A stretch of 64,000 nucleotides of DNA from a virus. Taxonomy: Duplodnaviria > Caudoviricetes. How positions within the stretch are numbered: position 1 is the stretch's first letter; the number at the start of each line of letters is the position of its first letter. The position numbers and the translations under genes were made by a program. Positions 2,071-59,025 of the stretch are shown one piece after another. The stretch lies in IMG/VR virus record IMGVR_UViG_3300025016_000004; one strand, written 5' to 3'. The notes beneath the pieces are model-generated. The model saw only the letters and a program-made list of their open reading frames with translations, did no database searches and had not been told where the DNA came from.

Positions 2071-3489
2071 ATGACAATTAAAGCAATATTTGATGAAATA
2101 AGTAACACAGCTGGTGATAATGCCAAAATGGATGTATTACGCAAGTATAAAGACAACGACTTACTTAAAGAAGTTTTGTATCGAATAAAATCTAAAAGAG
2201 TGAAGTTTTTTATTAAACAAATACCTGAATATATTTCATTAAATAGTTCAATCCCAGCTTCATTAGAGTGGGGTTTAAATAATCTTGATGAAATTTCTGA
2301 CAGAAAAATTAGTGGACAAGCGGCTATAAATCATTTAAAATTCATATTAGAAAGTGTATCACCAGATGATGCTTATATCATTGAGAGAATTATTGATAAA
2401 GACCCTAAGAATGGTTTAGGTAGAACCTACATTAATAAAGTCTATGGTGATTTGATTGAGAAAACGCCATATCAAGGTGCTAAATCATATGATGAAAAAT
2501 TAGCTAAAGATATTTTTAAGAAATATGGTTACGCTTATAGTGACGTTAAAATGGATGGTAGGTATGCTAACGCAATCATTCAAGGTGGTGAAGTTGAGTT
2601 AGAGTCTAGACAAGGTGAAACAACTCATATTCCAAGTGACTCATTATTATTTGAGGAATTATCAAAATTCCCTGATGGTGTATTAAATGGTGAGCTTACA
2701 ATGGAGAATTTAGACCGATACACAAGTAACGGTATTATAGCTTCAATTGTCGATATTGAGGGTCGTGGTAAAATGGGTGATAGAAGTGATGAAGAAACCG
2801 CTAAAAAATTAGTGGCATTCGAGAAAAAGCATGGTAGTTTTAAAGAAGCTGTTGATAAAATCAGATATACTGTATGGGATTCAATTACATTAGATGATTA
2901 TTTTAATAAGAAATCTGATATTGAATATAGACATAGATTGGATTTCTTATTTAAAAAGACTCCAGTTTTAGAATGTGATAGAGTATCAGTAGTTGAACGT
3001 AAGAAAGTATATTCTTATGATGAAGCAATGAGTCACTTCCAAGAGATTTTAAATAGAGGTGAAGAAGGTACCATCCTTAAAGCACCAACAGCTGGATGGT
3101 TTGATGGTAAGAAAAATCACCAAATAAAAATGAAATTAGAAATGAATATTGACCTTAGAGTTATAGGGTTTGAATATGGTGAAAAAAGAAGTAAAAATGA
3201 AAATGTTTATTCAACAATAAACCTTGAATCATCATGTGGTAAATTAAGAACCAATGCTTCTGGTATGACTGAGAAGATGATGAAAGATATTACTGAAAGA
3301 GGTGATGAACTTATGGGGACAATAGTAGAAATACGTTGTTGTGGTTTATCTCAAAACTCTAATGGTGATTGGTCAACTTTACATCCTTCAGTTGTTGAAT
3401 TGAGAGATGATAAAGATACTTGTGATTCATTAGAGTCATGTCAAGAGATTGAAGCAATGGCTAAAGGATTAGGTAAAGAAGTGGGATAA
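2071..3489 (+). CDS. ATP-dependent DNA ligase
   Basis: KMDGRY motif I, NGEL, EEGTILK, C-terminal OB fold, T4 gp30-like N-terminal domain. Confidence 0.93.
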   Translation: MTIKAIFDEISNTAGDNAKMDVLRKYKDNDLLKEVLYRIKSKRVKFFIKQIPEYISLNSSIPASLEWGLNNLDEISDRKISGQAAINHLKFILESVSPDDAYIIERIIDKDPKNGLGRTYINKVYGDLIEKTPYQGAKSYDEKLAKDIFKKYGYAYSDVKMDGRYANAIIQGGEVELESRQGETTHIPSDSLLFEELSKFPDGVLNGELTMENLDRYTSNGIIASIVDIEGRGKMGDRSDEETAKKLVAFEKKHGSFKEAVDKIRYTVWDSITLDDYFNKKSDIEYRHRLDFLFKKTPVLECDRVSVVERKKVYSYDEAMSHFQEILNRGEEGTILKAPTAGWFDGKKNHQIKMKLEMNIDLRVIGFEYGEKRSKNENVYSTINLESSCGKLRTNASGMTEKMMKDITERGDELMGTIVEIRCCGLSQNSNGDWSTLHPSVVELRDDKDTCDSLESCQEIEAMAKGLGKEVG

Positions 3490-4274: not shown

Positions 4275-5102
4275 ATGGTAATTACAACATGGTGTGAATT
4301 AGTAAATGGTAGGTGGGGTTACTCAAAACACCTATCTAAGATAAAATTTCCGATTAATATGGTTAAATGTGATGATTGTAATCACATATATAATGAAAGG
4401 TTTGATAAAACAAATAAAAGGTTTGAAAAAAATGAAAAAGATTTGTGTAAAAATTGTGTTAAAGAGAAAGAAGCTAAAAGACTTTCAGAGGTAGGTAAAA
4501 AAGCTTTAAGTAAAATATCAAAAAAAGATAGAACCAAAAATGCTAAATTGGGTGGTGAAGCATCATCTTTGAATCATAACAATTCTGGTAGATTTTCAAC
4601 GGAAAGGTGGGAGTCTATGAGTAAAAAAGAGCAAAATAAACAAGTAACAAGAGCAAATAAGGCATTACACGATAAATTAAATTCAGATGAAGAATTTAGA
4701 TTAAAACATTATTTAAAGATTTTTAAAAATTCTAAAATTGGTTTTACATCTAAAGGTCATAATGAATTACATGATTTTTTAAAAGAATATGGATTTAAAC
4801 AGCACCATGTAATAGATAAACTTGAGGTTGATGAATGTAATGTTAATAGAAAAATCGTTGTGGAATATAATGGGGATTTATATCATTGTAATCCTAGAAA
4901 ATATGATGGTGATTACTACAACACAGCAATTAAAATGATTTGCTCTGATAAATGGGAAAAGGATAGAAAAAGAACTTGGTTATTAAAAAGAAAGGGATAT
5001 AAAGTTTTTGTTGTTTGGGAAGATGATTGGTATAAAAATAGGGAAAAAATTAAAAATAGATTAAATAAATTTATTAATAATGAAATTAAAAAAGATAAAT
5101 AA
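4275..5102 (+). CDS. Free-standing Vsr/DUF559-like putative homing endonuclease
   Basis: VVEYNGDLYHCNP..KWEKD..R..LLKRKGYKVFVVWEDDW; lies between the intein halves. Confidence 0.85.
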   Translation: MVITTWCELVNGRWGYSKHLSKIKFPINMVKCDDCNHIYNERFDKTNKRFEKNEKDLCKNCVKEKEAKRLSEVGKKALSKISKKDRTKNAKLGGEASSLNHNNSGRFSTERWESMSKKEQNKQVTRANKALHDKLNSDEEFRLKHYLKIFKNSKIGFTSKGHNELHDFLKEYGFKQHHVIDKLEVDECNVNRKIVVEYNGDLYHCNPRKYDGDYYNTAIKMICSDKWEKDRKRTWLLKRKGYKVFVVWEDDWYKNREKIKNRLNKFINNEIKKDK

Positions 5103-6039
5103 AATAAAAGAAAGAAGGTCATTTGACCTTACGATACAAGACACAAATTGTTTTTTTGTAAATGACATTTTGGTGCATAATTCAAATGCGGGTATTGGAC
5201 ATACTGAAAATGATGGTATTTGGGCACAATCTAGAAGTAATATTATAACTCCTGAAAATGATAATATGGGGTTTGCAAGGTATGTTGAAGATAATAAACA
5301 AGCATTCCTTGAATTGGTTGAACATGTTAGATATGTAAACCATAAGATTAACCCAAACGATACTGTTATTGTATTCGGTGAATGGGCTGGTAAAGGCATC
5401 CAAAAAGGAGTTGCAATATCTCAAATAGAAAAGTCATTTTTCATATTTGACGTAAAAGTTGTACCTGAAGATAGTACTAAACCATATCATTTAGCTTCTC
5501 ACTATTTAAGAGATATTGACCATAGAATTTATAATGTTGAAGATTTCTTATCTTATGAAATCGAAATTGATTTTAATAGACCTGATTTGGCTCAAAATGA
5601 ATTAAGTGAGATTACCATTGCAGTTGAAGAATTATGCCCCGTAGGTAAAGCTTTTGGTATTGAAGGAATTGGTGAGGGTGTGGTTTGGTGTGCAACGGTT
5701 GATGGTCATGATTACCGTTTCAAAGTGAAGGGTGAACGACATAGCGCATCTAAAGTTAAGACTTTAGCTAAAGTTGATACTGAGAAAATAAATTCTATCC
5801 ATGAATTTGTTGGTTACGCTGTAACTCAAAATAGATTTGAACAAGGTATGGGCATTATTTTCCCTAACGGAGATATTGACATTAAAAAAATGGGTGATAT
5901 CATTAGATGGGTTGTGAATGATATTATGGCCGAAGAAAAGGATGTTTTAGAAGATAATAACCTCCAATCAAAAGATGTCAACAAATACATTTCAACAAAG
6001 GTTCGAGAACTCTTTTTAGAGGAATATAATAAACTTTGA
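5080..6039 (+). CDS. Split intein C-half (34 aa) fused to RNA ligase C-extein
   Basis: FDLTIQDTNCFFVNDILVHN|SNAG (blocks F/G); ligase motifs FGEWAG, EGVVW, FKVK. Confidence 0.9.
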   Translation: MKLKKINKIKERRSFDLTIQDTNCFFVNDILVHNSNAGIGHTENDGIWAQSRSNIITPENDNMGFARYVEDNKQAFLELVEHVRYVNHKINPNDTVIVFGEWAGKGIQKGVAISQIEKSFFIFDVKVVPEDSTKPYHLASHYLRDIDHRIYNVEDFLSYEIEIDFNRPDLAQNELSEITIAVEELCPVGKAFGIEGIGEGVVWCATVDGHDYRFKVKGERHSASKVKTLAKVDTEKINSIHEFVGYAVTQNRFEQGMGIIFPNGDIDIKKMGDIIRWVVNDIMAEEKDVLEDNNLQSKDVNKYISTKVRELFLEEYNKL

Positions 6040-9864: not shown

Positions 9865-10185
9865 AATATATTTGTTTTTTATATATATAAATATGCCGAA
9901 AATTTGGAAAATCAGACAAAATGTAGTATAATTGCGTTAAGAAACAATTAAATTACAACAAATTAAAAAAAAAGTGGGGATTTCATTTGGTAATCCCAGA
10001 TTTTATTTTTATGGTTGTACCAACACCTCATGATAAAATATTAGAAAATAGTAGAAAAGATTGTAGTTGTAGTAATGTTAAGACCGAAAGGTTTATGTAT
10101 ATAGATGCAATTAAATATTAAAAATTATTTAGTTATTTAAAATAATTTACATACCTTTGAAGAGTTAATATAAAATTTTTTGAAA

Positions 10186-11469
10186 ATGATTACTAAAGAA
10201 AATGGTTTAAGGTATGCAAAATTAGTCCATGTATCAGTTGATAATGGGTTAACATCTCAAAGTAATAAGGTGTATATAATGGAAGAACAACCTGATGGTA
10301 GAATCAAATGTGATTATGGTCGAGTTGGTAAAGATTTAGTGACTGTCTACAAGCGGTCACACGAATGGAATAAAGTTCTTCAAAGTAAAACAAACCCTAG
10401 AAAGGGTTATCAAGATGTTACAGACCTTATTGCTGAAACCACAACAACCTCTTCAAATAGTACATCATCAAAAACAGCTGATATTAAAGATAATCAAGTA
10501 AAACAATTATTTGATGATTTAATGGCTTATGCAAATAAATCAATCCAAAGAAACTATAAGGTTACACAAGATGCTGTAACTCAAGCACAAATTGATGCCG
10601 CTCAAGAAGTTTTAACAAAAGCTTCAGGATTGGCTAAAGTTGGTGTTAATGTTAAAGAAATCAACGACTTATTAATAAGACTGTACACCATCATTCCAAG
10701 AAAAATGAAAGATGTTCGTGATTATTTGATTGATGCTGCGGATGATAAAGATGATTTAGATAAGATAAAAAACTTCTTAGCTAACGAACAAGATACATTA
10801 GATACAATGGCTGGTCAGGTAAAACTTATTAGTCAACAAAAGGGTTCAACCATTGATGATGATTTAGATGGTGATGGGGAAATTACCTTATTAGAACAAA
10901 TGGGGTTAGAGGTGTCTGTTGAAACTGACCCTAAACAATTAGAATTGATAGATAGATTGGTTGGACCAACTAAAGATAGACTTAAAAAGGTTTATAAATG
11001 TGTTAATAAGAAAACACAAGCTGTATTCGATAAACATTACGGTAATGCTAGATTTAAAGACAGAAAATTATTCTGGCATGGGTCTAGAAATGAAAATATT
11101 TTTAATATAATCCAATCAGGATTATTAATTAGACCTTCAGGTGCAGTTCATACGGGGTCAATGTTTGGTGATGGAATATATTATGCTAATAAGGCTCAAA
11201 AATCATTAGGTTATACTTCAGTAAGAGGTTCTTATTGGGTAAATGGTAGTTCTAATAAGGGTTATTTATTGTTATATGATGTTTATCATGGAAAACAAAA
11301 AGATATTTATAAACATGATTCTAGTTGTTACTCATTATCTCAAAAAGTAATGGATGATGAAGGTTATGATTCAGTTTATGCACATGGTGGAGCGGATTTA
11401 AGAAATGATGAATTCATTATTTATAACCCAAAACAGTGCACTATTAAATATATAATTGAGATAGTCTAA
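10186..11469 (+). CDS. PARP-like ADP-ribosyltransferase (WGR-like, regulatory and catalytic domains)
   Basis: FWHGSR, GSMFGDGIYYAN..KSLGY, NDEFIIYN (H-Y-E triad). Confidence 0.92.
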   Translation: MITKENGLRYAKLVHVSVDNGLTSQSNKVYIMEEQPDGRIKCDYGRVGKDLVTVYKRSHEWNKVLQSKTNPRKGYQDVTDLIAETTTTSSNSTSSKTADIKDNQVKQLFDDLMAYANKSIQRNYKVTQDAVTQAQIDAAQEVLTKASGLAKVGVNVKEINDLLIRLYTIIPRKMKDVRDYLIDAADDKDDLDKIKNFLANEQDTLDTMAGQVKLISQQKGSTIDDDLDGDGEITLLEQMGLEVSVETDPKQLELIDRLVGPTKDRLKKVYKCVNKKTQAVFDKHYGNARFKDRKLFWHGSRNENIFNIIQSGLLIRPSGAVHTGSMFGDGIYYANKAQKSLGYTSVRGSYWVNGSSNKGYLLLYDVYHGKQKDIYKHDSSCYSLSQKVMDDEGYDSVYAHGGADLRNDEFIIYNPKQCTIKYIIEIV

Positions 11470-22805: not shown

Positions 22806-23924
22806 CTAATGGCTCACGTTAGCGTACAAAGGGTTGTCCCTAACCCCGAAATTCTTTATGTTATATGCAGCGTTTACATCTCTATCAATTGAATTACCGC
22901 ACTTATCACAATCATAAGTTCTATCTAAAAGTTTTAAATCTTTCTTGTGGTTTCCACAGTTAGAACATACTTTACTGCTTGGTTCAAACCTTCCAATTAC
23001 AACAAGATTTTTACCTTGCCATTCAGTCTTATATTCAAGCATTGTTCTTAATTGTCGCCAACCCATATCAGATATTGCTTTAGCTAAATTATGGTTCTTA
23101 ACCATATTACTAACAGACAAATCTTCCAATACAATTGTATTATAAGATTTAACTAATTCAGTAGATATTTTGTGCAAGTAATCAGTCCTTTGGTTACGAA
23201 TTTTTTCTTGCAGTAATGCTACTTTTAATTTTTGTTTTTCTCTATTTATTGAGTCTTTCTGTTTTCTTGCAAGGCTTCTTTGTTCAACTCTTAATCTTCT
23301 TTGTTGTGATTTAAAGAAGTTTTTATTTTCATATACTACACCATCAGAAGTAATAGCTAAATCTTTAATTCCAAAATCAATACCAACAGATGTTTCAGTT
23401 TTAATTGATTTTTTCTTTGGTTTTTCGGTTTGAGTATCAACCAATATTGAAACAAAATATTTACCAGTTACTGTTTTAGTTAATGTAACTCTTTTAGGTA
23501 AACCTTTAAATTCTCTGTGGTAATCAATAGCAACTTCTTTTAATTTAGGTAGCTTTAGTATTCCCTCTTTAAACGATATTTCAAATCCTTGTGGAAACGT
23601 AATTGACTGTTTGGAATACTTATTTTTAAATTTAGGAAATTGACCTTTACCCTTAAAAAAGTTTTGATATGCTGTATCTAAATTGATTATGCTATGTTGT
23701 AATACTTGACTTGGACATTCTTTAATGTAGTCAAATTCTTTTCTCAATTCTGGAAGTTGTTTTATTAAATCATATTTAGATATTGATTTTTTATTTGAGG
23801 CATACGCAACAGTCTTGGTTTCCAACCCCAAATTATAGACAAGTCTATTTACACCAAAATACCTTTGTAGTTGGTCTTTTTGGTCATCTGTTGGAAATAT
23901 TCTGTATTTGTATCCTTTAAGCAT
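22806..23924 (-). CDS. tnpB: IS605 TnpB RNA-guided nuclease
   Basis: HTH YKYRIFP, GIDFG (RuvC I), LEDL, SKVCSNCG Zn finger, DRDVNAA. Confidence 0.95.
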   Translation of the reverse strand: MLKGYKYRIFPTDDQKDQLQRYFGVNRLVYNLGLETKTVAYASNKKSISKYDLIKQLPELRKEFDYIKECPSQVLQHSIINLDTAYQNFFKGKGQFPKFKNKYSKQSITFPQGFEISFKEGILKLPKLKEVAIDYHREFKGLPKRVTLTKTVTGKYFVSILVDTQTEKPKKKSIKTETSVGIDFGIKDLAITSDGVVYENKNFFKSQQRRLRVEQRSLARKQKDSINREKQKLKVALLQEKIRNQRTDYLHKISTELVKSYNTIVLEDLSVSNMVKNHNLAKAISDMGWRQLRTMLEYKTEWQGKNLVVIGRFEPSSKVCSNCGNHKKDLKLLDRTYDCDKCGNSIDRDVNAAYNIKNFGVRDNPLYANVSH

Positions 23925-46366: not shown

Positions 46367-47317
46367 ATGGAATCAGTAATATTTAATCTAAATGAAACTA
46401 ATAGTTTATTCAATGGAATAATTGATTCCAGTTGGCACGCAATTGTTTTGGGTGAAGTTGCAATTCCAATCTTTAAAGATGGTGAAACATGCCCACATTT
46501 TAAAACAAGTGTTAGAGGTAAAAGAGTGTATCTTCTTACATCACCAAATTCATCATTAAAAATCATGCAACTAATGTTAGCAATAGATGCCCTTAAACGA
46601 GCTAGTGCTGCTGAAATAATACCCATAATACCTTATTTTCCTTATGCTAGACAAGATAAACGTGACCAACGAAGAGGCCCAATTGGTGCTAGAGTTATGG
46701 TTGAAATGATTGAAGGTAGAGGGGCAACGTCTATTATTACATTAGACTTGCATTCAGACCAAATTGAAGGGTTTTTTAGAATACCCGTAATTCATTTAAG
46801 AGGTAAATATCTATTCCATGATTATATAGTTAAAACAAGCTCTTCTAAGACCGTTTTATGCTCACCTGACGCTGGTGGATTAAAACGTGTTAAAATGATA
46901 AGAGACCTTATATATAAGCGTAATGAAAGTATTAAATTATCATTCGTATCAATAGATAAAACTAGGTCGGAAGCTAACAATGTTGATAGTATGGAAGTGT
47001 TGGGTAATGTTGAAGGTAAAGATGTTTTGGTAATAGATGATATGTGTGATACTGGTAATACATTGGTTAAAGGAGCCAATGCATTATTAGCCGCTGGGGC
47101 ATTAACCGTTAGAGTGTTGGTAACGCATGCGGTTATGAGTGGTAATGCTTATGAGATGATTGAAAGTTCTATTATTGATGAATTTATTTGTTCAAATTCA
47201 TTAGAACAAGAAGAAGAAATATATAATATGGGTGGTAAATTGACCGTCATTTCAGTGGCAAATGAAATAGCAAATGCAATAATTAATATTAATAACAGTG
47301 GAAGTATTCACAGATAA
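46367..47317 (+). CDS. prs: Ribose-phosphate pyrophosphokinase-family protein
   Basis: PYFPYARQDK, TLDLHSDQIEGFF, SPDAGG, IDDMCDTGNT. Confidence 0.9.
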   Translation: MESVIFNLNETNSLFNGIIDSSWHAIVLGEVAIPIFKDGETCPHFKTSVRGKRVYLLTSPNSSLKIMQLMLAIDALKRASAAEIIPIIPYFPYARQDKRDQRRGPIGARVMVEMIEGRGATSIITLDLHSDQIEGFFRIPVIHLRGKYLFHDYIVKTSSSKTVLCSPDAGGLKRVKMIRDLIYKRNESIKLSFVSIDKTRSEANNVDSMEVLGNVEGKDVLVIDDMCDTGNTLVKGANALLAAGALTVRVLVTHAVMSGNAYEMIESSIIDEFICSNSLEQEEEIYNMGGKLTVISVANEIANAIININNSGSIHR

Positions 47318-47552: not shown

Positions 47553-47809
47553 TGAAGATTACGTGGAATTTTAGAGTGTTGGTCACAGAACATAAACATG
47601 CTGATGGTGAAGTGGAAACTTGGTTGGCTATTCATGAAGTTTATAGTGATGACAAAAGTAACCCCCATAGTTATACAGAAAACTCAGTTGATATTTCTGG
47701 AAATACAAAAAAAGAGTTGAAGTAGCGTATTAAAAATGAAGGAATGTTTAAACAAACCTTATTTATGGGGTGATGATAGATTCCCACAAGAATATAAAAA
47801 AGGTGAGTA
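47552..47809 (+). pseudogene. Small phage gene interrupted by TAG at 47723
   Basis: WNFRVL..IHEVY..YTEN then LWGDDRFPQEY after the stop. Confidence 0.5.
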
Positions 47810-48030
47810 GTTTTACAGACCCAATTATTAAGCAACTTAGAAAATCTATTCCTGAATCTGAAGCAAGACTTAGACAGCTTAAGAAAGAGATAATACCTGA
47901 ATTCATTAAACCATATCACGTTAGGATATGTGAATTGATGGAAGGTAATCTTGAAGCTAATATAAGGTTTCTTAAAAAGATGGAAGCGTTTAAAAATGAA
48001 GAAATGACATCGAAATTTAAAAAGAAAAAA

Positions 48031-49377
48031 ATGAATAATTTAATTGGTGTTAGTGGGGGCATTAAAGCTGGTAAAGACCTTGTAGGGCAGATGATTCAAT
48101 ATATTGGTGATGAAATTGCTGAACCAACATTTGAAGGCTTTCAAGAGTTTCAAGTTACATTTACATTTACATTATATACCAAATATCAAATAAAGAAATT
48201 CGCTGATAAACTTAAAGATTGCCTATGCCTTATTTTAGGTTGTACTAGGGAACAACTTGAAGATAGAGATTATAAGAATACTGAATTAAGTGAAGATTGG
48301 TGGTATTATAAAGGAAATACTGGAATTTATCTTTATAATACTCCTTATAAAAGTAATAAGAAATTACCTCTTATTAAATTAACTCCTAGACTTTTACTTC
48401 AATTATTAGGTACTGAATGTGGTAGAAATATTATTCATCCAAATATTTGGTGCAACTCGCTTTTTTCTGACTACACAGGAGATATTGAAACTTGGAAAAA
48501 TATTAAAAGTTATGAAGGATTATACCAAATCTCTTCTTTTGGTAATGTAAAAAGTTTGGATAGAAAAATAACTTATGGTAATCATAAAGGAGAATACCAC
48601 ACTAGAAAAGGACAATTATTAAAACCTACTTTAAGTGGTGGATATGCAACAGTATCGTTAAGTGGAATTACTTACACTGTACATAGTTTAGTGGCTAGAC
48701 ATTTTTTGAAACAACCTGAAGGTAAAGATTATGTGATTAATCATATTGATTACAATAAAGAAAATAACTTTTATAAAAATCTTGAGTGGGTTAAACAAGC
48801 AGATAATGTAAGATATAATTATAAAGTAGGTAAAGCTAATATAGGAGAAAAGCAAAAAGATGCTAAACTTACAGATACTATTGTTTTACAAATTAAAGAC
48901 TGGTTATTTTCTGGAAAATATACCAATACTGAAATAGCAAGAAGAGTTAATGTATCACCTACAACTATTACAGATATAAAAAAAGGAAGGAAATGGAAGC
49001 ATGTAGGTAAAGAAATAGAAGAAATTCAACCAATATTACCTGAACCTACCTCTAACTGGATTATAACTGACGTTAGATTTCCTGAAAATGAAGGTAAAGC
49101 TGTTAGTGATAGAGGCGGTTTATTGATTGGCGTTAGACGAAAATTTGGGTTAAGATTTCCAGAGTATGCATTTCGTGAAATGCCTGATGACCCATATGCC
49201 ATACCATCAATGCTACAGAATGATGACGAAAAGTTATTTGATACTTTAACTCATGAGTCCGAGGTAAATATGGGTGACCATTCATGGTGTGATGTAGTAA
49301 TAGAAAACAACGGAACGGTTGAAGAGTTATTCAATGAAGTTTTGAAAGCTGTTTATTATAAAAAAGAATTAGTATGA
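48031..49377 (+). CDS. dNMP kinase-like protein with in-frame NUMOD4-HNH-HTH insertion (frame open from 47770)
   Basis: GVSGGIKAGKD, LQLLGTECGR..IW, WIITDVRF; insert WKNIKSYEGLYQISSFG..VHSLVA..NHID..NLEW. Confidence 0.85.
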   Translation: MNNLIGVSGGIKAGKDLVGQMIQYIGDEIAEPTFEGFQEFQVTFTFTLYTKYQIKKFADKLKDCLCLILGCTREQLEDRDYKNTELSEDWWYYKGNTGIYLYNTPYKSNKKLPLIKLTPRLLLQLLGTECGRNIIHPNIWCNSLFSDYTGDIETWKNIKSYEGLYQISSFGNVKSLDRKITYGNHKGEYHTRKGQLLKPTLSGGYATVSLSGITYTVHSLVARHFLKQPEGKDYVINHIDYNKENNFYKNLEWVKQADNVRYNYKVGKANIGEKQKDAKLTDTIVLQIKDWLFSGKYTNTEIARRVNVSPTTITDIKKGRKWKHVGKEIEEIQPILPEPTSNWIITDVRFPENEGKAVSDRGGLLIGVRRKFGLRFPEYAFREMPDDPYAIPSMLQNDDEKLFDTLTHESEVNMGDHSWCDVVIENNGTVEELFNEVLKAVYYKKELV

Positions 49378-52596: not shown

Positions 52597-53793
52597 CTAC
52601 CCACCCACAGCATAGCTGATGGGATGGGCTTCTGGTTTCATAGAGTGTGCTTTGTTGCCAAAGTCTGATTTACTCTCCACCTTTGTAATCGCAAGTTCCT
52701 CACGATATATTTTTAACCCTTCATTTAAGATATTGGTGCTTGCATTTAAATCACGGTCTAATTTATGACCATTATTGCAAGTCCACTCTCTATCTGAAAG
52801 ATTTAAGTCTTGATTTATATATCCACAAACACTACAAGTCTTACTTGAGGGATACCAACGATTGATTTTAACAACAGTTTTATCATTCCAATTTGCTTTG
52901 TACTCAACAAATCTAACAAACGTACCCCAACTTGCATCAGAGATATGTTTGGATAATTTTCTGTTTTTAACCATTCCTTTAATATTTAAATCTTCAAGGC
53001 ATATTACATCATAATTATTTACAATTTCATTACTTACTTTATGTAATACATCTTGCCTTGTGTTTGTGATTTTCTCGTGAATTAAGGCAACTTTGAGTTT
53101 TTGTTTTTCAAACCCATTACTACCATTCTGTTTACGAGAAAGATGTTGTTGTGCTTTCTTTAATTTTCTTTCATATCTTTTTGTGTATCTATTATTTTTA
53201 TACTTTATTCCATCAGAAGTGATAGCAAAGTCTTTTAAACCTAAATCTATTCCAACCGATTTATAAGTTTTTTTACTTGGATGATATTCTTGTTCAGTGA
53301 AAATTGAAACAAAATACTTCCCAGTTGGAGTTTTAGATATTGTGAATTTACCCACCTCACCTTTAATTTCTCTATGAATATTCACCTTAATACCACCTTT
53401 AAATTTAGGTGCGTATATTCTGCCATCCATAACTTTAGTATGTTGTGGTACTGTAAATGTATTTTTATTCTTTTTTGATTTAAATCTTGGGAACTTAGCG
53501 TTACCTCTAAAGAAGTTCACATAAGCGGTGTCTAAAGAGCGTAAAGCAAATTGAAGTGTTTGGCTATTCACTTCTTTCAACCAAATGGTGTCTTCTTGTT
53601 TTTTTAATTCAGTTAATGTTTTGGCTTGTCCGTAATAGTTATCGGTTTTTTTATCTGCTTGATACTGTTCCTTACGTTCATTTAAAAAGTGATTGTAAAT
53701 ATACCTAACACAACCAAAGTGCTTATCCAATAAGGTTTTCTGCTCCTTATTAGGTAATAATTCAAATTTATATGTTCTGTGTATATTCTTCAC
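52597..53793 (-). CDS. tnpB: IS605 TnpB
   Basis: GIDLGL, CLEDL, SKTCSVCG, DRDLNAS. Confidence 0.95.
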   Translation of the reverse strand: MKNIHRTYKFELLPNKEQKTLLDKHFGCVRYIYNHFLNERKEQYQADKKTDNYYGQAKTLTELKKQEDTIWLKEVNSQTLQFALRSLDTAYVNFFRGNAKFPRFKSKKNKNTFTVPQHTKVMDGRIYAPKFKGGIKVNIHREIKGEVGKFTISKTPTGKYFVSIFTEQEYHPSKKTYKSVGIDLGLKDFAITSDGIKYKNNRYTKRYERKLKKAQQHLSRKQNGSNGFEKQKLKVALIHEKITNTRQDVLHKVSNEIVNNYDVICLEDLNIKGMVKNRKLSKHISDASWGTFVRFVEYKANWNDKTVVKINRWYPSSKTCSVCGYINQDLNLSDREWTCNNGHKLDRDLNASTNILNEGLKIYREELAITKVESKSDFGNKAHSMKPEAHPISYAVGG

Positions 53794-53940: not shown

Positions 53941-54345
53941 ATGCAATCAAATTACATTTCTACAAATCATTCAAAACATTATCTAAAAGCACATATCATA
54001 TTGGTTACAAAGTATCGTAAACCATTATTAGTTAATCAACTAAAGGAAGATATGTACTTAATATTCAACAATATCATAGATAATTCAGATTTTAGTGTAG
54101 AGGTCTTCGAGTCAGATATAGACCATATACATTTCCTTATCCGTTACATACCACGTCTTTCAATATCACAAATAGTCCGTAGGTTAAAACAAGAATCTAC
54201 ATATCGCATTTGGCAATTATACCCAACCTTACTTCGTAGAGAATACTGGTACAAAGATATGTTCTGGTCAGCAGGTTATTTCGTTTGTTCAATAGGTGAA
54301 GCAAGTCCAGAAACCATACGTCAATATATCTTATCACAAGGTTAG
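53941..54345 (+). CDS. tnpA: IS200 Y1 transposase
   Basis: DHIHFLI; near-identical protein to 24071-24475. Confidence 0.95.
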   Translation: MQSNYISTNHSKHYLKAHIILVTKYRKPLLVNQLKEDMYLIFNNIIDNSDFSVEVFESDIDHIHFLIRYIPRLSISQIVRRLKQESTYRIWQLYPTLLRREYWYKDMFWSAGYFVCSIGEASPETIRQYILSQG

Positions 54346-54694
54346 TGTGTCGCTTACATCCCATTGGTGAAACGACCAATGGGTTTTACGCTCCGTTTCG
54401 TATAAATTAAAAATTATTTGGTTTTTTCGTTTTTATAGCACCTGAAACAATCAGCCCGTTTTATGGCAATATTCGTATTCCCAGAAAATTAAAGAAAAAA
54501 GTTAAAGCCTTTGTCGGCACCTCATGGAGTAATAATGATAATGCTAGTAGATTATGGTATTACATGGAAAAAAGTAATCCAAATTATAAGCGATTTTTAA
54601 TAAAACAAATCTGTGAAGAAAAAAAACCAAGATTTTATTAGGATATATCAAACATTCTTTTTATCTTTGTATCATAATAATTAAAAACTACATC

Positions 54695-55180
54695 ATGGAA
54701 ATTACAAAAACATTAGAATTCAATTCAATTAAAACAATTAGATTAATCAACAAAGACCCTTTACTTCAAAGAGTGCACATCGACAAAACTGGTACATATG
54801 GTTTTAATACCTTATTAGAATCCGCTGAAAATGGTACGTTAACACCTAAAGAAGTTGAATCTCTTGAAACTATTCACCAAGATGTGATATTGGTTTCTGA
54901 TAGGCATAAACAACTTTATCAAGAAATTAAAATTAAACCTGACACACCTAGACGTTACGGTAAGAAACAAGTCTTGGTCGAAGTTAAAAAGCAAGGTGGT
55001 AAAGCAACTTCACAACAAGAAACGGCATTAGAAATAGCCGATTTAAAGGCTATAGCTGCTACTTTTAATAGTAGAGTTACATCTGATAGATATAAAGGCA
55101 CTAACAAGCTTACAGATGAGAAACAACGTATTATCAAAGCGGCCATTAGAGACCTTAAAAAGAAATTAAAAGCAATATAA
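54695..55180 (+). CDS. Hypothetical protein
   Basis: ORF after TATCTTTG. Confidence 0.65.
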   Translation: MEITKTLEFNSIKTIRLINKDPLLQRVHIDKTGTYGFNTLLESAENGTLTPKEVESLETIHQDVILVSDRHKQLYQEIKIKPDTPRRYGKKQVLVEVKKQGGKATSQQETALEIADLKAIAATFNSRVTSDRYKGTNKLTDEKQRIIKAAIRDLKKKLKAI

Positions 55181-55439
55181 TAAGATAAATACAAAAATGA
55201 AAAGTAACACAGGACAATTGATTAGATGTAGAAAATATAATATTAACAACAGCAATAGTAAAAACATCTAACAGTTATTGCTTATACAATTTGTTAGCCC
55301 AGTACGCTTTATTAGTAGAATTTTAAATTTGGAATATTTATATATAAAATAAAGGACAAATGGAATTGAGAAAATTTATAAAAACAATAATCAAAGAATA
55401 CTTAATGTCTGGTGCGGATTTTAAACAAAAAACTTTGAT

Positions 55440-57185
55440 ATGAAAAACGAACGTAGTAATAATATTTTTTTGAGCGAGGGCATTAACGTACTGTCTTTAT
55501 TTGATGGCATTAGTTGTGGACAAGTAGCTTTAGAACGTGCAGGAATTAAAGTAAATAAATACTTTGCTTCCGAGATTGACAAACACGCAATTAAGGTAAC
55601 TCAAAGCAACCACCCAAATACAAAACAGATTGGTGATGTAACCAAAGTAAAAGTAAAATTACTTTACTTATCGGAGGTTTATTCGTATATTTGCAATTAT
55701 GATAACAATTTACAAAGCAAAATTTCCGAATGGGAAATATTATATTGGCTTGACAAGAAATACGCTATGTCAACGAAAGTCGGAACACAAAAGTCGAATG
55801 AAGGACAAGAAGTACAAGAATTTACCACTTTACAATGCATTGAGGAAATACGGTTTTCAAACAATAGTATGGGAAGTATTACTAAAGGTAGGAACAATAC
55901 AGGAAGCAGAAAGAATGGAGATGAAAATGATTGTAGAAAACCCTTTAAACTACAATGTAGCAGCTGGGGGTATGACTATGAGTTTCACACCCGAAATTTG
56001 CAAGAAAATATTAGAGAGTCAAAAGGGAGTGCCAAAGACAGATATTCAGAAAAAGAGAATATCACAAACATTGAAGAAAAGATTTCAAGACAAAAAGGAG
56101 AGGGATTTAATTTCAAAGAAAACCAAAGAAGCGATGCGGACTCCAGAAGTGAGAAAGAAATACTTGGAGAGTCGGATGAAGATAGATTACGAAGAGAGGT
56201 CAAGAAAAAAGAAAGAGACCGAAAAGAAGAAGAGATTAATTCTATTGAAGAAATTATCAAAGAATTACAAAGATGGGATGAAGTTGACAAAATTGAAAAG
56301 AATTACTGGGATTTCTTACGACTTCATAAGGAGGAACAAGTCACGGTGGTTGAGTATGAGGGAGGATTAAACGTATTTAAAGGAAGAATAGACCTTTTAT
56401 GTGGTGGTTCTCCTTGCCAAGGATTTAGTTTTAGTGGTAAGCAATTGAACTTTGAAGACCCACGAAGTAAACTATTCTTTGAATTTGTTCGGTTGCTTAA
56501 TGAAGTGAAGCCTAAATACTGGCTACTTGAAAATGTGGTAATGAAGCAAGAATACCAAGACGTAATAAGCCAACATTTGGGTGTTGAGCCAGTAAAATTG
56601 AATAGTTCTTTAACTTCTGCTCAAAACCGTGTGAGATTGTATTGGGCAAACTTCGATATTACTGAACCAACCGACAAAGGAATAGGACTTGAAGATATTT
56701 TGGAAGATACTGAAATGATTGGCCCAAGTGCGATACGTGGCAGAAGATTGAATAAAGCCACTATTTTAGGGCGTAGATTAGATGAACTAGGTAAACGACA
56801 AGATTATGACAAAACCATACCAATTACGCAATGCCTTGAAGTAAGAGCAACTAATCGAGATAAAAGTAATTGCCTTACTACCGTAGCAAAAGACACGGTT
56901 TTAACGACAATGGAAATAGGGCGACACCCTGACGCTTTTAATAGGAAATTACCATTTAGGAACTACAATAAAATTGAAAGGTGTAGGTTGATGAATTTGC
57001 CTGACAATTATTGTGATGAGATAAGTGATAACCAAACAGTAAAAGCGACTGGTAATGGTTGGGAAGTTGGAATGATTACTCACATATTTAACCAAATGGC
57101 TGCCCAAGCAGACAAAGAGCGTGGGGAAGAAAAAAATATTATTACGGCTTATATGCACGAACCATCATTGAAAACGGGAACGTAG
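55440..57185 (+). CDS. DNA (cytosine-5) methyltransferase with ~245-aa insert before motif IV
   Basis: FDGISCG, GGSPCQ, ENV, QNRVRLYW, GNGW. Confidence 0.9.
   Translation: MKNERSNNIFLSEGINVLSLFDGISCGQVALERAGIKVNKYFASEIDKHAIKVTQSNHPNTKQIGDVTKVKVKLLYLSEVYSYICNYDNNLQSKISEWEILYWLDKKYAMSTKVGTQKSNEGQEVQEFTTLQCIEEIRFSNNSMGSITKGRNNTGSRKNGDENDCRKPFKLQCSSWGYDYEFHTRNLQENIRESKGSAKDRYSEKENITNIEEKISRQKGEGFNFKENQRSDADSRSEKEILGESDEDRLRREVKKKERDRKEEEINSIEEIIKELQRWDEVDKIEKNYWDFLRLHKEEQVTVVEYEGGLNVFKGRIDLLCGGSPCQGFSFSGKQLNFEDPRSKLFFEFVRLLNEVKPKYWLLENVVMKQEYQDVISQHLGVEPVKLNSSLTSAQNRVRLYWANFDITEPTDKGIGLEDILEDTEMIGPSAIRGRRLNKATILGRRLDELGKRQDYDKTIPITQCLEVRATNRDKSNCLTTVAKDTVLTTMEIGRHPDAFNRKLPFRNYNKIERCRLMNLPDNYCDEISDNQTVKATGNGWEVGMITHIFNQMAAQADKERGEEKNIITAYMHEPSLKTGT
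55699..56370 (+). CDS. GIY-YIG/NUMOD3-like homing endonuclease overprinted in the +1 frame of the methylase
   Basis: TIYK..KYYIGLT..R..EH..LYNALRKYG..YNV..GG; own TATATTTG promoter at 55686. Confidence 0.88.
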   Translation: MITIYKAKFPNGKYYIGLTRNTLCQRKSEHKSRMKDKKYKNLPLYNALRKYGFQTIVWEVLLKVGTIQEAERMEMKMIVENPLNYNVAAGGMTMSFTPEICKKILESQKGVPKTDIQKKRISQTLKKRFQDKKERDLISKKTKEAMRTPEVRKKYLESRMKIDYEERSRKKKETEKKKRLILLKKLSKNYKDGMKLTKLKRITGISYDFIRRNKSRWLSMRED

Positions 57186-57271
57186 CACTTGCAGCTAACG
57201 GTTGTGTGTATGAAACGTAGCCATAGTAAACAGTTGATATAAACCACAGACCTTGATTGGGTATGTTTTAT

Positions 57272-57454
57272 AAAGGAGCGTAAAACCCATTCATCGCTTT
57301 AGCGTGAATGGGATGTAAGCGACAAAATTTTTATTAACTCTGGTTGTGGTATGCAGTCGGAGTATAAACAAAAACGGGATGAGGCGTTACCATTAGGTGA
57401 GTCTGTGACCCCCGAAGCCCAACCCATCGCCTCTGGCGTGGGTGGGTAGTTCAC
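57272..57454 (+). mobile_element. 183-bp non-autonomous IS605 derivative (promoter deleted)
   Basis: Same ends and tail as the 37952 copy. Confidence 0.88.
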
Positions 57455-57560
57455 GTTACATTTAAACCAAATCAAATTAAATCGGTTGATAATGATGGAA
57501 CTTGGGATATTGGGGATAATAACATTTTTTCTTAAATTTGTGTGGTGGGAGAAAAAATAA

Positions 57561-57594
57561 AACAATGAAAGATTTGAAACAATGAAAGATTTGA
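57561..57594 (+). repeat. 17-bp tandem duplication spanning a start codon
   Basis: AACAATGAAAGATTTGA x2. Confidence 0.9.
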
Positions 57595-58142
57595 AACAAT
57601 TTATAAAAACAACGATGCGAGAATTTTTGAATGAGAATAGAGTTTATCATTTATCCGATAATCCAAATTTAAAAATTGATAAAAACTATAACCCGAAACA
57701 AGGACAATTGGGTAAAGGTTTTTATGTAACAAAAAATATTGATGATTGGGGTATAGAATCTATTGGAAAACGTGATTATATATATGTAATAGAAAATTTT
57801 GAGGAATTAAGAATAGCCAAACCAAATGAACAACCAAATAGGGAACAACTCGTTGATTTTGGAATTAAAAATGGGTTTTATGAAATGGATAAGGTAATTA
57901 AACCTAATGGTGATGTTGTTAAGAATTTAGATGGGAATGATTTAATTAGACCTATTGAAACTGATAAATATAAAAAATATGCAACATATATAGACCCGAT
58001 GACTGGTAGTAGTATTGATTTTTTAGAACAAGAATATTTAAAATCAAAAGGCTTTGATGGCAAAGAACCATATTATAGCAGAGATGGTCATCAAATAATT
58101 ATATGGAATTATGATAAAATCAAATTAAAAAGAATTAAATAA
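57582..58142 (+). CDS. Protein with FIKTTMREFLNE leader and possible ART-like domain
   Basis: RVYH..GQLGKGFYVT. Confidence 0.6.
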   Translation: MKDLKQFIKTTMREFLNENRVYHLSDNPNLKIDKNYNPKQGQLGKGFYVTKNIDDWGIESIGKRDYIYVIENFEELRIAKPNEQPNREQLVDFGIKNGFYEMDKVIKPNGDVVKNLDGNDLIRPIETDKYKKYATYIDPMTGSSIDFLEQEYLKSKGFDGKEPYYSRDGHQIIIWNYDKIKLKRIK

Positions 58143-58364
58143 AGTGGGTGGGATTTTCTTTTAAATTTTTCAACCGAAATGTTGGTTAGAACGATGAACT
58201 GAACACTTACACATAACGTTTTGCGTGTATATGCCAGGTGGCGATTAGAAGCACTTACCTTTCAATTACACAGAATGTTTGATAGAAGAACGAATGTTGA
58301 ATAAACAACAGAACTCCCACTTGCATATATACCTTGTTATAACACGTTTTTAAAAATTAAAATT

Positions 58365-58691
58365 ATGAAAAGAAATATAACCGAAACCCCTGAAAAGTGG
58401 GTAATATTAAAACTATCAAACAATTATTATAAAGTTTTTGGAACTTGGAGTGGTGATTATTTAAATGGTGACAGGTGGAAGTTAAATTCTGGAATTGAAA
58501 AAGTTGAACAAGATGCTGATTTCTATTATTTTATCGGTTTTAGCGGTAGTTGCTACAAATGTCATAAAAAGAGTTATGGAACTGCAACTTCTTATGGATT
58601 AGGTATGTTGAATAAAATAATAGAAGATAGTAATAGTCAGATTGAATTAGTTGAAGATGAGGATATTGATGATTGGTCAAATGGGTGCTAA
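58365..58691 (+). CDS. Hypothetical cassette protein
   Basis: Stop lies in the next TAAC site. Confidence 0.7.
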   Translation: MKRNITETPEKWVILKLSNNYYKVFGTWSGDYLNGDRWKLNSGIEKVEQDADFYYFIGFSGSCYKCHKKSYGTATSYGLGMLNKIIEDSNSQIELVEDEDIDDWSNGC

Positions 58692-58752
58692 CGTTTAGTG
58701 TATGGCAAGTAAGCCACGCACGAAACTATCAAATTACTAATAACTTAATAGA

Positions 58753-59025
58753 ATGAACGAAACTTTAAATAACGCAGAAACCCACCATGTTTTATACACG
58801 GTGTTAGGCACAGTTTTATATCAAATTTGTGCAAAAGGAAAATATGCTTCATTTGATGGAAAAACCAAATATTATAGTAAAAACGCTTACATTAACAAAC
58901 CATCACAAGATGAAATAGATTCTTTTATTGATAAGTGCTGTAACAGTAAACATCCTAAGAATTTATATGATTTGGAAAAGGAAACAGTTGAAATATTTAT
59001 TGTTGAATTGAAACTTGCTCGTTAA
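58753..59025 (+). CDS. Hypothetical cassette protein
   Basis: Starts inside a palindrome (..LYTVLGTV). Confidence 0.6.
   Translation: MNETLNNAETHHVLYTVLGTVLYQICAKGKYASFDGKTKYYSKNAYINKPSQDEIDSFIDKCCNSKHPKNLYDLEKETVEIFIVELKLAR

Follow-up and report, generated by a model that had tools for sequence, protein, structure and literature searches.

A GIY-YIG homing endonuclease ORF nested out of frame in a phage C5 methyltransferase gene that stays open across the insert

Results

A second reading frame inside a C5 methyltransferase gene

We analyzed a 64,000-nt stretch of viral DNA (IMG/VR record IMGVR_UViG_3300025016_000004; hereafter the window), in which a C5 cytosine DNA methyltransferase gene harbors a second open reading frame (ORF). 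This inner ORF, of 223 codons and assigned to the GIY-YIG homing endonucleases, is nested wholly within the 581-codon methyltransferase ORF, in the +1 frame relative to it. It lies between the codons for methyltransferase motifs III and IV, in an insert placed just upstream of those for catalytic motif IV (GGSPCQ). A first-pass annotation made from the letters alone had proposed this arrangement, and the coordinates, the frames, and matches to Pfam and PHROG families confirm it. The components of the locus are as follows.

55440-57185, + strand: C5 cytosine DNA methyltransferase ORF; 581 codons, open across the insert; PF00145 matched in two stretches
55440-55651, + strand: 5' host segment, encoding motifs I-III and ending in GDVTKVK; delimited by homology with an insert-free allele
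55652-56411, + strand: putatively mobile insert, containing the promoter-like element and the endonuclease ORF and supplying its own codons for the strand ahead of motif IV
55663-55693, + strand: promoter-like element; -33-like TTTA at 55663-55666 and -7 box TATATTTG at 55686-55693
55699-56370, + strand: GIY-YIG homing endonuclease ORF; 223 codons, +1 frame relative to the methyltransferase
56412-57185, + strand: 3' host segment, encoding the remainder of motif IV, the motifs through X, and the C-terminus; delimited by homology with an insert-free allele

The insert-free allele used in this comparison, L118, lies on a 285-kb phage-like contig. In blastn alignments the window matches L118 with 89.5% identity over 55406-55651 and 90.2% over 56412-57199, and between these segments the window has 760 nt where L118 has 43 nt, a net gain of 239 codons. 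The endonuclease ORF accounts for 672 of the ~760 inserted bases, leaving ~47 nt on its 5' side and ~41 nt on its 3' side, and its frame is open already from 55654. The native linker, GTDLPN (six residues in close homologs), is absent from the window allele. Read in the methyltransferase frame (the host frame), the insert starts with VKLLYLSE and ends with NVFKGR, followed by IDLL. The 3' end of the insert, with the consensus ATAGACCTTTGTATAGG, is conserved up to the Gly-Gly codons in insert-bearing alleles of different methyltransferases. A TAG within these Gly-Gly codons serves as the endonuclease stop in most relatives; the window ORF stops seven codons earlier.

The stretch is present in 23 DNA sequencing runs of aquifer metagenomes, which may be its source; no RNA run was listed among those containing it. 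Among contigs from four of these runs, the insert-bearing form is covered by one contig of 1848 nt. A second contig population (runs X1, X4, X9, and X16) matches only the gene ends, at 55406-55473 and 57114-57200, with several mismatches; its depth is ~60-80% of that of the main contig and its match on the shorter side is 30 nt. These contigs may represent a divergent or insert-free allele or another gene, and nothing is drawn from them here.

Assignment of the two proteins

The outer ORF matches Pfam DNA_methylase (PF00145) with an E-value of 2.6e-31. A PHROG methyltransferase profile runs nearly continuously on both sides of the insert, with profile positions 200-265 aligned to residues 7-73 and positions 269-502 to the part following the insert, which marks the insertion as clean. 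Alignment to solved structures places residues 15-73 on DNMT3B residues 8-67 and residues 315-406 on DNMT3B residues 73-173; therefore, ~240 residues stand in for a motif III-IV linker of ~5 residues. M.HhaI also aligns on both sides of the insert, and the sequence matches include DNMT3A/B, M.HhaI, and M.HaeIII. C5 motifs I (FxGxxxG), IV (PCQ), VI (ENV), VIII (QxRxR), IX, and X (GNGW) are present in the canonical order and are invariant among the insert-bearing genes (alignment A1; invariant columns also in A3). In an AlphaFold2 model, the methyltransferase core is predicted with pLDDT values of ~80-96 and insert residues 91-296 with values below 50. The host-frame insert peptide is highly charged and hydrophilic and is predicted to be disordered, and the junction segments (residues 71-90 and 297-315) are modeled with moderate confidence as strands packed beside the core. 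Motif conservation and the confident core model lend indirect support to the insert-bearing methyltransferase being catalytically active.

Over its first 100 residues the inner ORF scores above the Pfam gathering cut-off for GIY-YIG (25 bits against 22.6, E 2.4e-5), the PF01541 match spanning residues 3-72, and the whole ORF matches two PHROG homing-endonuclease families with E-values of 1.9e-16 and 1e-14. Invariant or near-invariant positions in the endonuclease alignment (A2) comprise I4 and Y5, Y15, I16 and G17, E71/E74, and N86, and the conserved Tyr, Arg, Glu, and Asn positions of a GIY-YIG catalytic domain are present. An AlphaFold2 model of the endonuclease (mean pLDDT 77.6) has the I-TevI catalytic domain (1ln0) as its best structural match, with a target-normalized TM score of 0.74. 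In this model the N-terminal domain is followed by a helical linker and then by a small three-helix C-terminal module (residues 170-220, pLDDT >90); the C-terminal part matches HTH_58 only weakly and below threshold (E 0.044). A sequence-profile search of the PDB with the endonuclease alignment gave no meaningful match, and among cultured phages no close endonuclease relative was found, the best being less than 37% identical.

The host frame lacks stop codons far beyond chance

Synonymous-codon shuffling of the endonuclease ORF predicts 11.0 host-frame stops. The observed number is 0, and none of 20,000 shuffles was free of stops. Over the same ORF the third frame holds 29 stops. Across the window's other ORFs of at least 150 codons, the same alternative frame contains 16.8 stops per 100 codons, and the longest stop-free alternative-frame run in such ORFs is 85 codons, as compared to 223 here. 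The depletion can be read directly at codon junctions. Of the endonuclease's codons, 95 precede a codon starting with AA, AG, or GA, and none of these ends in T, as compared to 18% of all its codons. The first-pass annotation had argued that so long an open alternative frame implies selection and had proposed a check for depletion of T|AA, T|AG, and T|GA at these junctions; both the argument and the check hold up.

The same pattern is found in all eight insert-bearing relatives for which DNA was fetched, each with an intact GIY-YIG ORF of 221-230 codons in the +1 frame and 0 host-frame stops against 11-14 expected. For the window and these eight relatives, no shuffle was stop-free. Roughly 10% of the single changes that are synonymous in the endonuclease (36 of 375) create a host-frame stop; nonetheless, lineages that have diverged by ~25% in DNA carry none. 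These analyses confirm that the openness of the host frame lies far beyond chance.

The two frames differ in the kind of constraint they appear to experience. Variable columns in nine aligned copies number 71, 49, and 135 at endonuclease codon positions 1, 2, and 3, which indicates that the endonuclease frame is under purifying selection at the amino-acid level. The identity of the host-frame insert peptide (0.47-0.52, window against the 70%-identity clade) is not above that of the non-coding third frame (0.50-0.56), and thus the host frame is constrained solely to stay open. These comparisons support the view that the endonuclease frame alone sets the sequence at the amino-acid level, with the host frame selected just for the absence of stops. 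At one locus (L018:2-1777) the endonuclease frame has two nonsense codons and a one-codon deletion, and its 591-codon methyltransferase frame is open. Another homolog, P0003, has an in-frame internal deletion. Copies of the element that are in decay thus still retain an open host frame.

Recurrence of the insert at a fixed site

A protein search with the long ORF returned many insert-free homologs of 342 residues, 93-95% identical, which have just six linker residues at this place, in line with the short linker that the first-pass annotation had expected of homologs. The same search returned dozens of homologs of 528-653 residues with the same insert in the same place and widely different target-recognition regions. 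The homologs P0038-P0041 are tandem fusions of two C5 methyltransferases each. The host-frame translation of the insert falls into 21 representative clusters at 50% identity, and in the full-length ones it always occupies approximately residues 61-305. In a large protein collection just nine entries derive from gene calls in the endonuclease frame, as compared to dozens of long host ORFs; standard annotation hides the element.

The eight relatives described above were seeded with the methyltransferase and are a sample biased toward long ORFs. A second retrieval relied only on an endonuclease alignment, used in a translated search of raw contigs, and its sample is thus unbiased for host-frame status. 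The alignment query was needed, as single-sequence endonuclease queries gave only distant relatives or nothing. Among the loci so retrieved, 19 have an endonuclease with 45% or more identity to that of the window, and in all of them the host (-1) frame is free of stops. Each of these endonucleases sits in an open frame of 158-695 codons that encodes a C5 methyltransferase and carries the insert at the same site, between motif III and GGSPCQ; contig ends truncate the two shortest frames, and a few loci are near-duplicates. The 36 relatives with an identity of 44% or less are all free-standing genes, with 2-18 host-frame stops per 100 codons (~11 on average). Together, the 8 methyltransferase-seeded and 19 endonuclease-seeded loci make 27 related loci without a host-frame stop, a few of which share a contig or are near-identical.

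Endonuclease and host segments do not share a single history. Between the window and L005 the host segments are 92-93% identical and the endonucleases 71%. Between the window and L006 the endonucleases are 84% identical, the 5' segments 90%, and the 3' host segments 54%; across the insert-bearing genes the 3' segments are 41-93% identical. The element is therefore polymorphic for presence and absence at a fixed site, and endonuclease and host are incongruent, as is characteristic of homing endonucleases. Incongruent histories together with near-identical insert-free alleles form the pattern that homing accompanied by co-conversion of the flanks would be predicted to leave.

The closest free-standing relative (L024:1472-3009) is 41% identical and ends 9 nt upstream of a C5 methyltransferase gene, a neighbor found for none of the 35 more distant free-standing relatives. 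Because this endonuclease adjoins a C5 methyltransferase gene, we suggest that the element descends from a free-standing endonuclease gene that neighbored its target, an ancestral arrangement that L024 possibly keeps. One methyltransferase homolog, P0091, has a LAGLIDADG intein between the Pro and Cys of GGSPCQ, ~8 codons downstream of the insert site, and the motif IV DNA is therefore a target common to different mobile elements.

A promoter-like motif ahead of the endonuclease ORF

The first-pass annotation had also pointed to a box 5 nt before the inner ATG and proposed an internal promoter there. The box, TATATTTG, lies at 55686-55693, and comparison with the rest of the window strengthens that proposal. 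The corresponding motif, GTATATTTG, occurs 11 times on the + strand and not at all on the - strand, against ~0.9 expected per strand, and is always on the coding strand. An ORF of 60 codons or more begins 4-18 nt downstream of nine of the 11 copies, and a TTTG or TTG precedes every copy by ~19-20 nt. This distribution supports GTATATTTG as a strand-specific, ORF-proximal promoter-like motif of this genome, to which TATATTTG would belong. The primary-sigma promoter consensus of Bacteroidota consists of a -33 TTTG and a -7 TAnnTTTG, which we take the window's motif to match. Shine-Dalgarno-like motifs are found upstream of only 1 of 60 ORFs, a rarity that fits Bacteroidota-type hosts. A scan for sigma-70 sites gave the number expected from shuffled sequence and was uninformative.

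The motif copy at 55685-55693 is spaced 5 nt from the endonuclease ATG and matches in this respect two other window genes, which have a spacing of 4 nt; we therefore infer that the endonuclease transcript is leaderless or nearly so. Among relatives, the box is present in 15 of 15 members of the main clade, 11 of which also have the -33 TTTG. A GGRGG-containing stretch, CTTATCGGRGGTTTAT, is conserved ~21 nt before the ATG in all clades.

Alternative explanations

Several established arrangements were considered and rejected. A group I or group II intron finds no match in an Rfam scan of 54000-59000 with E-values up to 1, and the ORF is flanked by fewer than 50 nt of inserted sequence on each side. 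RNA folding of the 5' junction (55630-55760) is no better than that of shuffled sequence (z -0.78), and the sole long-range stem there is not conserved in relatives. An intein is contradicted by a nuclease that is out of frame and by a host-frame peptide with neither Hint motifs, nor the Cys/Ser ... His-Asn junction residues, nor conservation; searches of the insert for Hint or intein families in Pfam and for any PHROG family were empty. The first-pass annotation was thus right on both counts, that intein motifs are absent and that a group I core has no room. A split gene of the Aeh1 nrdA/mobE type and translational bypass are both rejected because they depend on a stop in the host frame, which the insert lacks in the window and in all 27 related loci.

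A broader version of removal, in which an atypical intron is cut from the mRNA or ribosomes skip the insert and the open frame is incidental, draws on the fact that endonuclease-invaded phage genes usually depend on introns. We regard it as very improbable. A ribozyme core would not fit beside an ORF that occupies most of the insert, neither Rfam nor the junction fold gives it any support, bypass would call for a stop after the take-off codon, and either process would make the strong depletion of stops needless. Greater weight, although still well on the unlikely side, goes to the possibility that the insert-bearing methyltransferase is dead or dispensable and that its frame stays open for another reason, e.g., translating ribosomes that keep transcription from ending too early or the mRNA from decaying, to the benefit of endonuclease or downstream gene expression. 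The host-frame peptide is itself unconserved, and phage methyltransferases are often dispensable, as was argued for the ShiLan methylase (PMC11855218), which also has an endonuclease insertion. Nonetheless, the catalytic motifs are all invariant in genes whose 3' segments are just 41-93% identical, L018 retains an intact host frame and motifs with a dead endonuclease, and the endonuclease apparently has its own promoter.

The endonuclease could also be produced by a programmed +1 ribosomal frameshift that fuses methyltransferase motifs I-III to the nuclease. Its frame is open from 55654, the CTTATCGGRGGTTTAT stretch is conserved in all clades, and the database protein P0122 has exactly such a fusion architecture. 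However, no slippery or stop-stimulated shift site was identified, and the frame change in P0122 falls ~40 codons into the endonuclease, giving a nuclease without the GIY and YIG strands. The CTTATCGGRGGTTTAT stretch is accounted for as a promoter spacer between -33/-7 elements that match 10 other window sites, and Shine-Dalgarno-like motifs are, as noted, nearly unused. Frameshifting thus appears quite improbable. The least probable of the alternatives, in our estimate a very remote one, is that the host-frame insert peptide is a functional domain adopted by the methyltransferase. The modeled strands at residues 71-90 and 297-315 would agree with this, but the amino-acid identity of the peptide equals that of a non-coding frame, neither Pfam nor PHROG has a family for it, and its residues 91-296 are modeled with pLDDT below 50.

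Other features of the window

A 30-nt element, ATTAACTCTGGTT..GG.ATGCA.TCGGAG, occurs three times on the + strand (29588-29617, 38043-38072, and 57333-57362; 0 expected), and a GTATATTTG promoter box stands immediately before the copy at 29588. The third copy lies downstream of the methyltransferase within 57272-57400, a region with several-fold higher contig depth in the metagenome runs and therefore apparently multi-copy. The element and region may represent a small RNA or a cassette boundary. Two IS605-family TnpB genes (OrfB_IS605 with a Cas12f1-like TNB domain; 22806-23924 and 52597-53793, both - strand) and an IS200-type Y1 transposase gene (53941-54345, + strand) are present, one TnpB/TnpA pair lying just upstream of the methyltransferase. 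At 4275-5102 and 5080-6039 (+ strand), a 275-codon ORF overlaps the start of an RNA ligase ORF whose first 34 residues weakly match an intein splicing domain (E 7e-4); the ligase gene may have an intein or split-intein arrangement. A 535-codon ORF (47770-49377, + strand) has NUMOD4 and HNH_3 domains only in mid-protein, at residues 240-348, and may represent a further endonuclease fusion with, or insertion into, a host gene. The window also encodes a PARP catalytic domain protein, an ATP-dependent DNA ligase, and a ribose-phosphate pyrophosphokinase (10180-11469 on the + strand, also 2071-3489 and 46367-47317). These genes, along with the syntenic 285-kb L118 contig, point to a jumbo phage with Bacteroidota-type promoters.

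Discussion

The locus as a whole is, in our judgment, probably best explained by an out-of-frame endonuclease insertion that is read through by its host gene, has its own promoter, and is mobile by homing. In the mechanism that we propose, a GIY-YIG homing endonuclease gene of the free-standing type, with its own promoter, would have been inserted into a phage C5 methyltransferase gene in the +1 frame, and the insert would be removed by neither RNA nor protein splicing. The methyltransferase would be translated through the ~240-codon insert, and the added residues would loop out of the short surface linker that joins motifs III and IV as a disordered, hydrophilic segment. Host-frame stops would be purged because the phage is under selection for a working methyltransferase. 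The endonuclease would be made separately, most likely from a transcript started at the internal -33/-7 promoter, and would probably cut insert-free methyltransferase alleles near the conserved motif IV DNA, with repair copying the element in. The first-pass annotation had suggested invasion of this kind, free of splicing and by way of a tolerated loop. That suggestion is supported by sequence and evolutionary comparison because the same element lies at the same site with an open host frame in all 19 endonuclease-retrieved loci, in genes with invariant catalytic motifs and an unconserved, predicted disordered insert peptide, and without any intron or intein signature.

Several observations weigh against this explanation. 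The element is known only from metagenomes, with no cultured relative. The window's own subclade has TTTA rather than TTTG as its -33 element, and divergent clades lack the TAnnTTTG box, having instead a weak -10-like hexamer (TAGAAT, TATACT, or TACAAT) 8 nt before the ATG. P0122 starts in the methyltransferase frame and continues in that of the endonuclease; it represents an allele that is frameshifted or mis-assembled, and with it broken alleles or frameshifted products do exist.

Homing endonucleases are thought to persist in essential or useful genes only by way of self-splicing introns, inteins, or the splitting of the gene. The present locus and its relatives give strong quantitative support to a further solution, proposed in 2025, in which the endonuclease is hidden in an alternative frame and the insert is carried as a loop. 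They also offer a rare clean case in which one frame appears to be selected for its protein sequence and the frame overlapping it just to remain free of stops. In C5 methyltransferases, the linker between motifs III and IV may accommodate ~240 inserted residues, a property that could serve engineering. A wider claim, for which we put the chances at about even, is that out-of-frame 'stealth' insertion constitutes a general third way beside introns and inteins. Under this claim, GIY-YIG and HNH nucleases would have converged on it from free-standing genes beside their targets, each element being stop-free in the host frame, expressed as a leaderless mRNA from a promoter matched to the host sigma factor, and systematically missed by gene callers, whose output would contain the long ORF alone.

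Known mobile endonucleases share individual features with the element described here. T4-like phages carry free-standing GIY-YIG (seg) and HNH (mob) endonuclease genes, and mobE of Aeh1 splits nrdA in two (PMC2988022; PMC3045599); Edgell's review of the T4 mobile elements describes free-standing endonucleases with just short overlaps and split genes. Like the present element, the seg and mob genes have no intron or intein, are mobilized with flanking DNA, are associated with conserved target genes, and often have their own or embedded promoters. They differ in lying between genes or in splitting the host gene into two translated pieces, whereas here one continuous host ORF overlaps the whole endonuclease gene. 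I-TevI, from the group I intron in T4 td, shares with the present endonuclease an N-terminal GIY-YIG catalytic domain, which in the model of the latter is followed by a long helical linker and a small C-terminal helical domain that may bind DNA. I-TevI likewise has its own promoter embedded in a host transcription unit; unlike I-TevI, the present endonuclease has no surrounding intron. Endonuclease-bearing inteins such as that of P0091 target the same conserved motif IV DNA and are translated with the host protein, but an intein is in frame and self-splicing, whereas the present nuclease is out of frame and its insert lacks any intein motif. A homing endonuclease lying out of frame within a cyanobacterial dnaX intein (bioRxiv 10.64898/2026.09.14.751524) also occupies an overlapping alternative frame of a translated insert. 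Its carrier is a splicing intein, and the host protein is restored by protein splicing.

The closest precedent is the 'ShiLan domain' (Arsenault, Gosselin and Gogarten 2025, PMC11855218), an out-of-frame insertion of an HNH endonuclease in mycobacteriophage DNA methylases. Our literature search found this HNH precedent and no description of an out-of-frame GIY-YIG element in a C5 methyltransferase. In both elements a homing-type endonuclease ORF in another frame fills nearly the whole insert with no host-frame stop, intron and intein features are absent, and a loop with little structure is predicted for the host-frame peptide. Both have a disjunct distribution among close relatives, with a related free-standing endonuclease just upstream of a methylase elsewhere. 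The strategy itself is thus not categorically new. The ShiLan report left translation of the endonuclease as an open question and makes no mention of GIY-YIG nucleases, promoters, stop-depletion statistics, or an analysis by codon position. An internal genome-typical promoter with a near-leaderless mRNA would be a concrete answer to that published question of how a hidden nuclease is expressed, and the element described here is the better supported variant. The two nevertheless differ in most particulars. The present nuclease is GIY-YIG and I-TevI-like, whereas that of ShiLan is HNH with flanking zinc fingers and unrelated; the present hosts are AT-rich phages with Bacteroidota-type promoters, those of ShiLan mycobacteriophages; and the present element has a genome-typical promoter 5 nt before its ATG and is spread among C5 methyltransferases of differing specificity domains. 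The present element is an analogue of the ShiLan element and not a homologue, the two having apparently arrived at the same arrangement by convergence.

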